Source of the DNA: Alphaproteobacteria bacterium
GTDB lineage: Bacteria; Pseudomonadota; Alphaproteobacteria; RF32; CAG-239
Assembly (NCBI GenBank): GCA_017484225.1
Contig: JAFUTN010000008.1
Location: forward strand, 7,440 to 71,439
Direction of reading: 5' to 3'
DNA length: 64,000 nucleotides
A program made the position numbers and the translations under genes. This document shows positions 3,444 through 61,280 of the stretch, piece after piece. Position 1 is the stretch's first letter, and every line of letters begins with the position of its first letter. The notes below the pieces were generated by a model. The model saw nothing but the letters and a program-made list of their open reading frames with translations, had not been told where the DNA came from and ran no database searches.

Positions 3444-3565
3444 TATTTTTCCTTCCTTACTAAAACAAAAGTCCGAATTAATTCTACAACATTATATATA
3501 ATAAAACAAAATTAAAAAGCACTATTTATTATTTTATAAACAGGCTTATTATAAACAAATAAAAG

Positions 3566-3594
3566 TTGACATCAAGTGTTTGTATTCATAAATT
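3566..3594 (+). promoter_or_regulatory. Sigma70-like promoter for the porin gene
   Basis: TTGACA (3566..3571), 17-nt spacer, TAAATT (3589..3594), followed by SD AGAGGTGG before the ATG at 3620. Confidence 0.5.
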
Positions 3595-3619
3595 AATATA
3601 AAGTTTTAGAGGTGGTATA

Positions 3620-4726
3620 ATGAAAAAGTTTTTGTATGTTTTGTTGCCTTTTGCGATTGTTTCTCCGGCCGGTGCCGGCGAGTTTGTGTATGACTATTCC
3701 GCAGTCGGAGGGGCTTTTTACGGTTACAGCGAGTTTTCCAAACACATCAGGCATTATAAACATCATAATACTCCGTCTTATTTAGAAGTTTTCAGCAGTG
3801 CGGGGTATGAATTTGATGCCGATACTTCTTTGATGATTAATGCAGATGCTCAGATTGCCGGAGCTAAAGAGGTTGAAGACTATAATCACGGAGATTGGGG
3901 CGAAAATGTGTATGTAACGCTTCAATCGCACTATGGTGATGTCAGTGTCGGCCAAGTTTATAATGCCGCATATCAAATGGCTGTCGGGGCTCCGTCTGTC
4001 GGATATTTTAAGGCAAACAATTCCCCGATTACCGATTTTTTGGCGAATCCGAATTGGCAGCGCAACAGCAAAGTTACTTCTTATCGCACACTTAATTCAA
4101 CATATTTAAATACTGATGCCGATGCCATGAAAATCAGTTATACAACACCGGAGTTTTACGGCACAAAAGCAGCGTTTTCATATACGCCGGACAGCTATTC
4201 CAAAGCCGGATTATTGAATAAGGACAGTGCTTATGAACATAAATCATCTTATGCCGCCGGATTATATAATCTTTCGGATTTCGGTTATTTTGAGGCGGAA
4301 AGTTCACTGGGTTATGCCTATAATCGCAAAAACAATCAGGAAGTTTCGGCCGGATTGAGTCTGTATCGCAAAGGATGGACACTCGGCGGTTCATATCGTA
4401 AGAGTTTTACTTCCGGCAGTGATTATGCTCTGGCCGGCACAAGTGAAAACGGCTTGCCGGCATATTATGACGGCTTCAGAAAAGGTGATGCTTACAATGT
4501 CGGTTTAAGTTATGAAATAGGACCGTTTAAAACCGGAGTAACTTATTTTGCTTCGGCCGCCGATAAAACTGCCGATAAAAATAAGACGGTAACTTTTGCC
4601 AACCGTTTCGCCTTTAATAAATATGCTGCGGTTTATGCCGCTGCCGCTTGGAGTGAATACAAAAGCGAAATTGAGGGCAAAAATAACGGCACTGCGGTTA
4701 TTTGCGGACTTGAATTTAATATTTAG
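3620..4726 (+). CDS. Outer-membrane beta-barrel porin (family not assigned)
   Basis: Signal peptide ending AGAGE. Alternating aromatic/Gly/Ser/Tyr-rich strands throughout, no hydrophobic helices. Size is typical of a 16-strand porin. Confidence 0.55.
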   Translation: MKKFLYVLLPFAIVSPAGAGEFVYDYSAVGGAFYGYSEFSKHIRHYKHHNTPSYLEVFSSAGYEFDADTSLMINADAQIAGAKEVEDYNHGDWGENVYVTLQSHYGDVSVGQVYNAAYQMAVGAPSVGYFKANNSPITDFLANPNWQRNSKVTSYRTLNSTYLNTDADAMKISYTTPEFYGTKAAFSYTPDSYSKAGLLNKDSAYEHKSSYAAGLYNLSDFGYFEAESSLGYAYNRKNNQEVSAGLSLYRKGWTLGGSYRKSFTSGSDYALAGTSENGLPAYYDGFRKGDAYNVGLSYEIGPFKTGVTYFASAADKTADKNKTVTFANRFAFNKYAAVYAAAAWSEYKSEIEGKNNGTAVICGLEFNI

Positions 4727-6175: not shown

Positions 6176-6397
6176 AGAGTGAGCTAAAAACTCACTTCAG
6201 GGCGTGACAACCCTTTGCAAAAAATCAGTCGTTATAAAACGACTTTTAATTGTATGCCGATTTCGCATGTTGTTGTGTGCGGATGTCGGTGTTATAAGGC
6301 TTAAAGCACGAAATCGCCGAGCCGTTTTGATTTTTTGCACGGTTTGTCAACATCCGCCCACCATTTTAGGTGGCTTTTTTGTTAACTTTTTTAATTA
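6176..6397 (+). promoter_or_regulatory. Structured 5' leader RNA L1 (candidate attenuator / riboswitch-like element) of LRR paralog 1
   Basis: Aligns end to end with the leader of the 15220..15969 paralog, with compensatory stem changes, a 45-nt near-identical core (6279..6323) and a 3' terminator. The start is estimated from the promoter. Confidence 0.55.
6356..6380 (+). terminator. Intrinsic terminator inside leader L1
   Basis: GCCCACC-ATTTTA-GGTGGC followed by TTTTTT, located about 20-35 nt upstream of the candidate start codons. Confidence 0.55.
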
Positions 6398-36575: not shown

Positions 36576-37430
36576 TTATTCAAAAATCCACTCAATCGTG
36601 TTTTCGTTATCGTTGCTTGTGGCTTCATCTGCTTCCGGTATGGTATAGCGAATACGGTTGCACCAACCGCCGGAATTTCTGCAGGTATCACAACATTTGC
36701 GCTTGCTTACATCCGGTTCGCGGACACAATCGGCTCCGTTCCAAAAGTGACTTACGGAAGAATTGCATTGAATATCTGTCGCTTTTTCAACTTTAACATC
36801 CGGCATACACACACGTTCATACATATTTGGGTCACATGTTCCGCCGGCAGCGGTGCTGACGAATCTTTTTATTTTATCTCGGCAAATCGTAACATCTCCC
36901 AAACAACGGAAAATCTCAATTTTATTGCTTCTGTCGTTAAAAGCATCAATGTGCCAATCTTGGATGTTACTTTGGTCAGAAATAATAATTTCTTTTGTTG
37001 CTCCGTGTGTCCGAAAAGCATCTTGCCCTACGTAAGTAACCGTTTCGGGAATATAGACGGATACAAAAGAATCGGTATCAAAGGCTCTGTCTTGTATTGT
37101 GGTGACAGAACTTCCTATATTGATGTCTCTGATTTTTTTGTAGTCTCGGAAAAGTGCATAACTTACGTTGTTAACTCCCTGTATATCCACGGAAGTGATT
37201 TTGTTTTTATAGTCTTTCCATGGTTGGTTTTCCGTCCAAATATTATTATTAACGGTAACATACTTATCTATATTTCCGCTTCCGCTGATACTGAGTTTTC
37301 CTTGTGAATCCACACTCCATAAACACGTTCCGGCCGAATTGCATGTTCCGCTGTCTGCAATATCGGCCCGAGCGATATCGGTAGAATATGAAAACAACAA
37401 TACTATCCCGAACACTAACATTTTTCTCAT
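36576..37430 (-). CDS. Secreted BspA-type LRR / Cys-rich protein, IEWIFE-tail family, paralog 3
   Basis: Trimmed to the ATG at 37430 (MRKMLVFGIVLLF, SD GGAG), because the longer ORF runs through the leader terminator. CLWSVDSQGKLSISGSGN, Cys-rich spacer, tail RYTIPEADEATSNDNENTIEWIFE. Confidence 0.8.
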   Translation of the reverse strand: MRKMLVFGIVLLFSYSTDIARADIADSGTCNSAGTCLWSVDSQGKLSISGSGNIDKYVTVNNNIWTENQPWKDYKNKITSVDIQGVNNVSYALFRDYKKIRDINIGSSVTTIQDRAFDTDSFVSVYIPETVTYVGQDAFRTHGATKEIIISDQSNIQDWHIDAFNDRSNKIEIFRCLGDVTICRDKIKRFVSTAAGGTCDPNMYERVCMPDVKVEKATDIQCNSSVSHFWNGADCVREPDVSKRKCCDTCRNSGGWCNRIRYTIPEADEATSNDNENTIEWIFE

Positions 37431-37688
37431 AATTTTTCTCCACTTTAGTAAATAAAAAAGCCACCGGTTAGGGTGGTCGGGGAGTTGACAAATCATGTTC
37501 AGCATAATGACTATTACGGCCTTTAGCATAACAATGCTTGAACATACGCCGTAATCTCCCCGTCCGAATACGGGGATTTAAAACCAAAAAAGCACCCTGA
37601 AGGGATACCGTTTTGGTATCGCTGAACAAAGAGCCTGTCACAGCCCCGAACCTCTCGGTTCTTCGGATGAAATAAAATTTATCCATCC
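37431..37688 (-). promoter_or_regulatory. Structured 5' leader RNA L3 of LRR paralog 3
   Basis: Shares with L1/L2/L4 the 5' module (hairpin running into TTCGGGGCTGTGACAGGCTCTTTG) and the C-rich box plus terminator at the 3' end. Confidence 0.5.
37454..37476 (-). terminator. Short intrinsic terminator inside leader L3
   Basis: Minus strand: CCACC-CTAACC-GGTGG, then C and TTTTTT. Confidence 0.45.
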
Positions 37689-37694
37689 GCAACA

Positions 37695-37723
37695 AGGTTA
37701 TCACGGAGTATTTGTTTTGTAAA
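37695..37723 (-). promoter_or_regulatory. Sigma70-like promoter of leader L3
   Basis: Minus strand: TTTACA (37723..37718), N17, TAACCT (37700..37695). Confidence 0.5.
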
Positions 37724-60354: not shown

Positions 60355-60365
60355 GAGTTTTGGTT

Positions 60366-60896
60366 ATGGCTGCTCGTTGGTATGTTGTTAATGTTTATTC
60401 CGGTTCGGAGAAAAAAGTTGCCGAGTCTATTCGTGAACAGGCAATGCTCAAAAAAATGGATGACAGAATTTTAGAGGTTTTGGTTCCGACCGAAAATGTT
60501 GTTGAAATCCGTAAGGGTGCAAAGGTTAATGCCGAGCGCAAGTTCTTTCCGGGATATATTTTGGTTAAGATGGAAATGTCTGACGAATGTTGGTTGGTTA
60601 TCAAAAACACTCCGCGTGTAAGCGGTTTTTTGGGTAGCCGCAATAAGCCGCAACCGATTAGTGAGGCAGAAGTTCAAAAAATTATGGCTCAAATTACCGA
60701 AGGTATTGAACGTCCGCAAGTTGAAGTCAGCTTTGAAACAGGTGAACAAATTCGTGTTACGGATGGTCCGTTTGCCAGCTTTGTCGGAATTGTTGAAGAT
60801 ATTGATACCGAAAAATCTCGTCTTAAAGTGTCGGTTTCTATTTTCGGCCGCTATACTCCGGTTGAGTTGGAATTTTCGCAAGTAGAAAAGATTTAA
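60366..60896 (+). CDS. nusG: Transcription termination/antitermination protein NusG
   Basis: WYVVNVYSGSEKKV N-terminus and a KOW domain (GEQIRVTDGPFASFVGIVEDID). Trimmed to the ATG at 60366. Confidence 0.95.
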   Translation: MAARWYVVNVYSGSEKKVAESIREQAMLKKMDDRILEVLVPTENVVEIRKGAKVNAERKFFPGYILVKMEMSDECWLVIKNTPRVSGFLGSRNKPQPISEAEVQKIMAQITEGIERPQVEVSFETGEQIRVTDGPFASFVGIVEDIDTEKSRLKVSVSIFGRYTPVELEFSQVEKI

Positions 60897-60953: not shown

Positions 60954-60964
60954 GCAATATTTAA

Positions 60965-60992
60965 TTGCAAAACGGATTAAATCTGTTATGAT
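60965..60992 (+). promoter_or_regulatory. Sigma70-like promoter of leader L4
   Basis: TTGCAA (60965..60970), N16, TATGAT (60987..60992). Confidence 0.45.
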
Positions 60993-60999
60993 TGATTCA

Positions 61000-61280
61000 T
61001 GGTGAAAGAAATTTTTACCAAGAACCCGAAAAAGGGGTTCGGAGCTTTGAACGGCTTTTATAGTGAGCTGTATCGTTAATGATACTGTTAAGTCAGTAAG
61101 ATTTGCTGGCATATTCCCTGATTATAGGAAAATCTATGGTCGGGGTGCTTGTGGTGTATGTCTAGGCATAGTAGCTAAAGACCACAGGAGTCATTTCTCA
61201 CTATATGATTGTTCAACTCTCCGACCGTCCTTTTGAGGCGGATTTTTTATTTTTAAAATTTTGCTTTATTGGAGAAAAAG
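61000..61280 (+). promoter_or_regulatory. Structured 5' leader RNA L4 of LRR paralog 4
   Basis: Hairpin GAACCC-GAAAAA-GGGGTTC running into TTCGGAGCTTTGAACGGC (the same 5' module as L3 and L1). C-box CTCCGACC plus terminator at the 3' end. Confidence 0.5.
61225..61248 (+). terminator. Short intrinsic terminator inside leader L4
   Basis: CCGTCC-TTTTGA-GGCGG (one bulge), then A and TTTTTT. Confidence 0.45.

Follow-up and report, generated by a model that had tools for sequence, protein, structure and literature searches.

Introduction

In Bartonella henselae, the RNAs Brt1-9 are encoded upstream of trp genes and accumulate as abundant transcripts of ~200 nt, few of which continue into trp (PMC5387305); they rank among the most abundant transcripts, and a role in trans has been proposed for them (PMC5387305, PMC8070961). 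According to a review, deletion of the 3′ stem-loop of Brt1 raises transcription of trp1, and the signal of a gfp reporter located behind brt1 increases when heme declines (PMC8070961). The Brt RNAs have been reported as genus-specific, and a Northern probe has been published in the supplement of the same study (PMC5387305). A second described RNA, the small RNA (sRNA) Xcc1, is an 88-nt species detected on Northern blots (PMC2996969), which in Xanthomonas integron cassettes lies upstream of symE and in the same orientation (bioRxiv 10.1101/2025.06.18.660453). Here, we compare these RNAs with L3, a leader located on the minus strand of a 64,000-nt stretch of an alphaproteobacterial genome (GTDB lineage RF32; CAG-239; contig JAFUTN010000008.1, positions 7,440 to 71,439; hereafter, the window), upstream of a gene for a secreted leucine-rich repeat (LRR) protein.

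Beyond Brt and Xcc1, we found no leader of this kind described in the literature. Our analysis makes it reasonably probable that L3 is the transcribed leader of the LRR gene and a member of a widespread alphaproteobacterial family of leader RNAs that adopt two folds, with fold I corresponding to the ‘off’ state and fold II to the ‘on’ state of the gene. Two alternative folds that each carry covariation are rare outside the known riboswitches.

Two alternative folds of the L3 leader

All coordinates given below are positions in the window and refer to the minus strand unless stated otherwise. From the promoter to the U-tract, the leader spans ~240 nt and folds with a free energy of −94.6 kcal/mol (z = −7.4), which none of the 200 shuffled sequences equalled. 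Applied to an unfitted MAFFT alignment of 27 paralogues, RNAalifold returned fold I, which consists of P1, P2 with the G-box:C-box pairing at its outer end, a variable P3, P4, an 8-bp P5 and the terminator. The elements of the L3 RNA, from 5′ to 3′, are as follows:

37664..37689 (-), P0, the 5′-terminal hairpin CGGAUGGA...UUUCAUCCG
37648..37661 (-), P1, hairpin GAACC-GAGA-GGUUC with a GNRA loop
37621..37647 (-), G-box GGGG (37647..37644) and the 5′ strand of P2 (CUGUGACAGGCUCUUUGUUCAGC), from fold and covariation
37585..37620 (-), P3, variable hairpin region, terminator-like in L3 (GGUAUCC-CUUCA-GGGUGCU, then U6)
37556..37576 (-), P4 hairpin, with P4a UCCCCG (37576..37571) and P4b GGACGGGGAG (37565..37556)
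37512..37555 (-), P5 domain, with the 8-bp helix AUUACGGC/GCCGUAAU, the invariant internal loop GUAUGUUCA / CUAAAG and a variable tip, P5a
37485..37511 (-), 3′ strand of P2; in the alternative fold, hairpin 2 (GUCAU 37511..37507 with AUGAU 37496..37492) and the linker UUGUCAA
37475..37484 (-), C-box CUCCCCGA with the first CC of the terminator, partner of either the G-box or P4b
37454..37476 (-), weak intrinsic terminator CCACC-CUAACC-GGUGG-C-U6, called by a terminator scan at 37476..37461

Compensatory changes are found in 34 of the 51 pairs of fold I in the unfitted alignment. In an alignment of 65 distinct sequences from ~60 genomes and 17 genera, which was fitted to fold I, 98.1% of the cells are paired, 43 of the 51 pairs are compensatory, and the covariation score reaches 0.57, whereas shuffles give 0.21 and slid controls no more than 0.10. 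At the level of individual helices, P1 is 100% paired, with compensatory change in all five pairs across genera; the segments of P2 are 98–99% paired, with such change in 12 of 15 pairs; P4 is 100% paired (four of five pairs compensatory), and the corresponding fraction for P5 is eight of nine pairs; the terminator is 98.8% paired and covaries in four of its five pairs. Among the pairs of the fold, G·U is much more frequent than A·C (303 vs 21), which assigns the structure to the sense-strand RNA.

The initial annotation of this region had proposed a long-range pairing between GGTTCGGGG (37652..37644) and CCCCGACC (37482..37475). Both segments are present, and covariance analysis, the check that had been called for, places the G-box:C-box pairing within the strongly covarying long-range helix P2, which comprises ~20 bp in three segments, rather than the 8 bp noticed earlier. 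The variable pair of the G-box:C-box helix alternates between A:U and G:C, with A·C at this position in 8–10 sequences. The core of the proposed pairing thus covaries, but its GGTTC:GACC extension would require opening of the covarying, GNRA-capped P1; the extended pairing GGUUC:GACC is compatible in ~87% of cells, the outer pairs being the least conserved. The hairpin GAACC-GAGA-GGTTC itself (37661..37648) reads as annotated, continues into the downstream run GGGGCTGTGACAGGCTCTTTG (also written GGGGCTGTGACAGGCTC), and has its L1 counterpart at 6191..6217. Likewise present are the local hairpin TCCCCG/CGGGGA (37576..37557) and the terminator CCACC-CTAACC-GGTGG-C-T6 (37476..37454), the latter called independently by the terminator scan and covarying. 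With a stem of 5 bp that includes four G-C pairs, a 6-nt loop and a single C followed by U6, this element qualifies as an intrinsic terminator, although a weak one, given that the terminators of neighbouring genes have stems of 7–10 bp.

Fold II is built around P4b, the partner-switching strand, which can pair with either P4a or the C-box. P4b, UGGUCGGGGAG, is the reverse complement of the C-box, CUCCCCGACCA, in nearly every copy; their duplex extends over 10–12 bp, its energy lies between −14 and −22 kcal/mol in all copies, and matched strands do better than mismatched ones. The P4b:C-box helix is 95.8% paired, with compensatory change in 5 of 11 pairs, and none of 500 shuffles was as good, so that the 3′ arm of the local hairpin proves to be the second partner of the C-box, as previously suspected. 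When the fold is forced to contain this helix, hairpin 2 appears, with four of its five pairs compensatory in the broad alignment fitted to fold I. In fold I, the nucleotides of hairpin 2 are taken up by P2, which makes the two folds mutually exclusive. The isolated 3′ half of L3 assumes an Xcc1-like fold, with CGGGGAG:CUCCCCG closing the domain. In several lineages, P4a, P4b and the C-box co-vary and the G-box is unchanged; the variants (P4a/P4b/C-box) are the following:

CCCAG/CUGGG/CCCAG, in leaders L058, L113, L114 and L127
UUUUCU/GGGAAG/CUUCCC, in leader L110
UCCCCAC/GGUGGGGAG/CUCCCCGCC, a one-nucleotide deletion class in sister copies of the same genome
UCCCGGAAU/AUUCCGGGAG/CUCCCGGAAU, in Bartonella Brt

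These covariation patterns indicate that both folds are under selection, and P4b turns out to be the stronger predicted partner of the C-box. Two further arrangements were considered and discarded, namely, a partner swap in fold II in which the G-box pairs with P4a, a pairing that runs into A·C mismatches in as many as 31 of the 52 sequences, and two identical helices serving as sites for a dimeric protein, for which the G-box would have to track P4b and the C-box, as it does not in the CAG/CUG and GCC variants.

A widespread family of leaders

A search of the genome with nhmmer identified ~58 leaders of type A (like L1 and L2) and 35–39 of type B (like L3 and L4), 27 of the latter full-length; altogether, the genome carries ~85 full leader copies, along with some truncated ones, each located before a paralogous gene for a secreted LRR protein. 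From the 27 full type B copies, L3 among them, we built a covariance model, R1, whose E-values are to be read as rough. As one of the training sequences, L3 reaches 205.4 bits across positions 1–218 of the model (E = 1e-54). Full-length members of R1 possess P1, the G-box, P2, P4, the P5 loops, the C-box and the terminator, and L3 has all of these. L1 and L2 match R1 end to end, at 38–46 bits; types A and B are therefore homologous, and the 5′ module that the initial annotation had seen in all three leaders is indeed shared.

Matches to R1 are found in 41 of the 50 genomes of the genus and, in a check independent of the training set, in 110 of the 119 genomes of the taxonomic family, covering 17 of its 19 genera, as well as in 15 of the 139 other alphaproteobacterial families sampled. 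With a short conserved pattern, we also located members in Rhizobium, Shinella, Methylobacterium, sphingomonads, Rhodobacterales and Acidobacteriaceae, as well as in metagenome-assembled genomes of Rickettsiales; these members are full-length R1 matches, with scores of 40–146 bits. Blastn relatives of one Rhizobium copy reside on 386 plasmids, mostly conjugative, of Agrobacterium and Rhizobium. Across the family, the downstream genes are heterogeneous and encode LRR proteins, lipoproteins, XRE and AraC regulators, and small membrane proteins. In the distant members L132, L141, L142, L131 and L265 (3660..3690), a Shine–Dalgarno sequence (GGGGAG, AGGAG or GGAGG) and a start codon come within 8–14 nt after the C-box, and the terminator is absent, which suggests that members of this type might be translational versions of the same switch. 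Rfam 15 contains no family for the L3-type leaders, the plasmid members or Brt; at gathering thresholds, it recognizes only three tRNAs in the window, and the L3 region yields a chance-level match to STnc100 (E = 0.19) and no match to a curated aptamer.

Copies of Brt were located at 117 Bartonella loci with the probe-derived sequence. Among those tested, 10 are matched by R1 with 19–29 bits (E from 9e-7 to 5e-4, rough values), all on the trp strand and abutting the probe-derived sequence. Still recognizable in Brt are the G-box, P2, P4 and the loop motifs of P5, and its P4b and C-box are perfectly complementary over 10 bp. On Rhizobium plasmids, an R1-type RNA lies ~45 nt upstream of a gene for an XRE regulator, which shares 35% identity (E = 5e-23) with the Trp protein following a Brt RNA in Bartonella. 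The R1 matches to Brt and this plasmid context with a Trp homologue suggest that L3 is a distant relative of an RNA with experimentally shown attenuation, and the published restriction of Brt to Bartonella appears to be outdated, as judged from these sequence comparisons.

Several observations on the more remote members are worth recording. Unannotated family RNAs of ~195 nt are present on Rhizobium and Agrobacterium plasmids (L267, 2501..2693; L268, 2499..2691; L265, 2475..2663 and 3500..3697). Hundreds of Rhizobiales plasmids carry the family RNA, in many cases immediately followed by a gene for an XRE regulator with homology to Bartonella Trp, and pAtCFBP7129b has two copies. Downstream of the distant leaders L135, L143, L134 and L142, open reading frames (ORFs) of 80–103 aa share the motif ...AY.Y..DKRH.(L/P)T.

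Promoter, downstream gene and genomic neighbourhood

The leader is flanked by the following expression signals:

37695..37723 (-), promoter, with −35 TTTACA (37723..37718), a 17-nt spacer and −10 TAACCT (37700..37695)
36576..37441 (-), ribosome-binding site (RBS) and gene, with GGAG (37441..37438), ATG (37430) and stop (36576)

The promoter TTTACA-N17-TAACCT lies where the initial annotation had placed it, and includes an extended −10 element (TGn, with TG at 37703..37702); its −35 and the TGnTAnnnT block align across the 27 paralogous leader copies. It fails a strict sigma-70 consensus scan, for which the −10 hexamer, matching at only three of six positions, is too weak. The start codon, ATG 37430, located 24 nt after the U-tract, is placed by the paralogue alignment and by GGAG at 37441..37438, such that the ORF traced to 37529 was over-extended, as had been suspected. 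The gene encodes a 284-aa secreted, Cys-rich BspA-type LRR protein with the C-terminus IEWIFE and a Pfam LRR_5 match (E = 1e-10), one of ~100 paralogous secreted LRR/Cys-rich proteins in this 1.48-Mb genome of 39% G+C, all with the invariant IEWIFE tail. A separate promoter for the gene within the 3′ end of the leader was considered and dropped, none being conserved in the paralogue alignment. Given that there is no space for a promoter between the U-tract and the RBS, the gene must be expressed by read-through and the leader is, in any case, its 5′ untranslated region (UTR).

Besides the P5 domain, which is conserved, two parts of the leader had been overlooked. P0, a component of the minimum-free-energy fold, differs in sequence among the copies, the paralogues having a differing hairpin at the same place. 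In P3, the terminator scan calls a hairpin at 37609..37591 (-), the flanking A-run and U-run of which are also able to pair. A terminator-like P3 hairpin is present in most type B copies of the genome and is not conserved in other genera, where sequence and length vary.

In the metagenome-assembled genomes of two close relatives (L070, JAUNIW010000020.1; L071, JAZNJJ010000028.1), the ParC protein is 86–87% identical and no leader is found within 1.5 kb downstream of parC. In L070, pheA is next after parC; in the present genome, pheA is on another contig. On the evidence of gene order, the L3 cassette is best described as a lineage-specific insertion or rearrangement; the exact empty site and the borders of the cassette are not definable, because the parC synteny differs in the relatives, with pheA found there. 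The only nusG of the genome lies directly upstream of leader L4 and its LRR gene (60360..60896 (+) and 60960..61250 (+)), where rplK-rplA would be expected; this adjacency is probably a coincidence.

A proposed switch and its strength in L3

In the mechanism that we propose, fold I, favoured by ~10–17 kcal/mol in nested models, would be the default state, in which P2 joins the 5′ and 3′ halves of the leader, the G-box:C-box and P4a:P4b pairings are formed and nothing hinders the terminator, so that most transcripts would end as a ~240-nt RNA and the gene would be off. Fold II would form when the 3′ half folds alone, into a three-way shape resembling Xcc1 in which the P4b:C-box helix encloses P5 and hairpin 2. 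This would remove the C-box and, in most members, 3–4 nt of the 5′ arm of the terminator, favouring read-through, or, in the distant members, would relieve the ribosome-binding site of an anti-Shine–Dalgarno function of the C-box, favouring translation. Fold II would thus represent the ‘on’ state, a direction of switching that we infer from the fold predictions. The balance between the two states might be shifted by a ligand, a protein, processing or the kinetics of folding. Trans-acting candidates were considered and dropped; the genome encodes a single GGDEF protein and a single NusG and lacks CsrA. Control through a leader peptide was rejected, given that the ORF starting at the invariant AUG varies in end and frame and, in 59 of 87 copies, reaches its stop codon ahead of the C-box.

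A number of results weigh against this mechanism, and some of them concern L3 in particular. Here, the alternative helix consists of 7 bp, an A·A mismatch (37563/37477) and a further 2 bp, and overlaps the terminator by 2 nt; because of the mismatch, fold II and the terminator are weakly coupled in L3. The helix and the terminator coexist in the thermodynamic model, with a terminator probability of 0.99, the corresponding value for L4 being 0.10. In the context of fold II, the probability of the terminator drops below 0.5 in only 11 of 66 copies. Relative to fold I, the nested fold II loses 13–17 kcal/mol in stability, and the equilibrium ensemble computed for the whole leader, with a mean terminator probability of 0.88, does not include it; hence, a factor or a kinetic route is required for it to form. 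The alignments A3, A5 and A7 were fitted to fold I, and the paralogues and relatives that supply most of the covariation are not independent. The links to described RNAs are likewise remote: Brt and L3 share only remote sequence similarity, below strong thresholds; L3 itself has no match to the Xcc1 model at E ≤ 10; and all matches of the leaders to that model are below its gathering threshold. As to the switchable antiterminator that the initial annotation had read from L3, a single C-box with two conserved partners holds up, but for L3 itself the model puts helix and terminator together; for the family as a whole, the antiterminator remains a plausible model.

Alternative explanations

The two folds might serve the maturation of an RNA or its pairing with targets, rather than the control of termination. 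The leader would then be a stand-alone or dual-function sRNA with its constitutive 3′ end at the terminator, and would either be active in trans or give rise, by processing, to a ~90-nt RNA resembling Xcc1 and c4, with the gene expressed through leaky read-through. We consider this unlikely, although the leader has its own promoter and terminator, Brt is abundant and has been assigned a putative role in trans (PMC5387305, PMC8070961), and Xcc1 runs as an 88-nt RNA on Northern blots (PMC2996969). Also in its favour, the 3′ half of L3 folds in isolation into the Xcc1-like shape, fold II of L3 leaves the terminator in place, and P4b and the C-box are nearly invariant across ~95 copies, which would permit cross-talk between them. 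Yet the variable strand has no copy-specific target in the downstream 130 nt (−10.61 kcal/mol for matched vs −10.60 kcal/mol for mismatched combinations, p = 0.48), a result that also led us to discard c4-like antisense action of the leader on its own mRNA. Furthermore, the lack of room for a separate gene promoter makes the leader a 5′ UTR, and the replacement of the terminator by a Shine–Dalgarno sequence in the distant members is a signature of cis-regulation. The same alternation of platforms around a conserved core, with either a terminator or sequestration of a Shine–Dalgarno sequence, would fit a metabolite riboswitch, in which the internal loop of P5 and the junctions might bind a ligand that stabilizes one of the folds. 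The invariant unpaired GUAUGUUCA and CUAAAG, set within covarying helices, point in the same direction, and some second-messenger riboswitches occur, like these leaders, in many copies per genome before surface genes. The heme-dependent behaviour of the brt1 gfp reporter (PMC8070961) would be consistent with ligand binding, but is indirect and known from a review; no Rfam riboswitch matches the leader, and the heterogeneity of the downstream genes gives no metabolic clue. We regard a riboswitch of this type as quite unlikely.

A function at the level of DNA, as a recombination site or a single-strand promoter of a mobile cassette, with the helices reflecting the structure of single-stranded DNA, seems very improbable. 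It would account for the ~100 leader-plus-gene units scattered among core operons, for the two close relatives without a leader within 1.5 kb after parC and for the homologues common on conjugative plasmids, and sRNA-Xcc1 is found in integron cassettes (bioRxiv 10.1101/2025.06.18.660453). However, pairing is strand-specific, and it was the ratio of G·U to A·C (303 to 21) that led us to reject a DNA-level structure; the promoter, the U-tract terminator and the RBS are in register on the sense strand, and the Brt homologues are abundant RNAs (PMC5387305).

Implications

If the leaders operate as the proposed two-fold switch, one RNA class would control ~100 genes for secreted proteins in a genome of 1.5 Mb, and knowing its trigger would show by what means the surface repertoire of these uncultured gut and rumen bacteria is deployed. 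The family would join Bartonella Brt, an unannotated plasmid RNA and, distantly, Xcc1 and c4, and with such kinship, work on alphaproteobacteria that grow in the laboratory could resolve the mechanism for all members. It is conceivable, if rather doubtful, that the L3-type leaders, Brt, the RNA-plus-regulator modules of Rhizobiales plasmids and, more distantly, Xcc1 and c4 make up one ancient superfamily of ligand-responsive two-state switches, which respond to a heme-related or host-derived signal and have reached ~90 copies per genome in gut and rumen Alphaproteobacteria. Were this the case, a single signal would govern the whole repertoire of secreted surface proteins.

Comparison with known systems

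Like the L3-type leaders, Brt RNAs are multi-copy, structured alphaproteobacterial RNAs with their own promoter, located before a paralogous gene that lacks one. The 3′ stem-loop of Brt attenuates transcription; in L3, a terminator is predicted from the sequence. The two differ in copy number and cargo, with nine copies of Brt before an XRE-type regulator and ~85–95 copies in the L3 genome before a secreted LRR protein; L3 itself is not upstream of an XRE-type helix-turn-helix (trp) gene and is followed by an LRR_5 protein instead. They also differ in the way they end, L3 with a canonical U-tract terminator and Brt with a hairpin that lacks the U-tract. In Bartonella doshiae (L275, 2655..2700 (-)), the 3′ hairpin of Brt, GCGAG-GGCG-CUCGC, is followed by ACCCGGUCGGGGGGAA, which holds the trp Shine–Dalgarno sequence, without a U-tract.

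The resemblance to sRNA-Xcc1 is confined to the 3′ half of the leader. In the Rfam consensus (RF02221), the outer helix, GGCCGGGGG/CCCCCGGCC, surrounds two hairpins and is followed by a 3′ ACC tail; this consensus corresponds, part for part, to fold II, with P4b:C-box, P5, hairpin 2 and ACC; L3 shows this architecture of outer helix, two hairpins and ACC tail, with ACC at 37474..37472. The Xcc1 model matches 53 leader copies of the genome with 15–36 bits, full-length and at the same relative place (gathering score 53), and the 3′ half of the distant members with 24–28 bits. By contrast, Xcc1 is without the ~110-nt 5′ half that forms fold I, is beta- and gammaproteobacterial, and occurs in another gene context.

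The c4 antisense RNA of phages P1 and P7 has a similar architecture, of 87 positions. In the immI region of P1, a segment located upstream in the c4 transcript (a1/b1) is complementary to parts of the folded domain. The c4 model (RF01695) gives 15 sub-threshold matches at the same place in type A leaders, the best with 29.5 bits against a gathering score of 45, and no match on L3; type A leaders match the Xcc1 and c4 models better than type B. Nor does the variable strand of the leaders show a copy-specific target near the RBS of the downstream gene, of the kind expected for c4. Whereas c4 is phage-borne, the L3 family is not phage-associated: among 50,697 phage records, there are only two weak family matches, and a phage origin of the leader was rejected on this account.

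From classical attenuators and riboswitch platforms, L3 is set apart by the small overlap of antiterminator and terminator (2–4 nt), by the long-range P2, which also competes, and by the lack of both a conserved leader peptide and an Rfam aptamer. What it has in common with them is the arrangement of four overlapping segments, P4a, P4b, the C-box with the 5′ arm of the terminator, and the 3′ arm of the terminator, placed just before the RBS.

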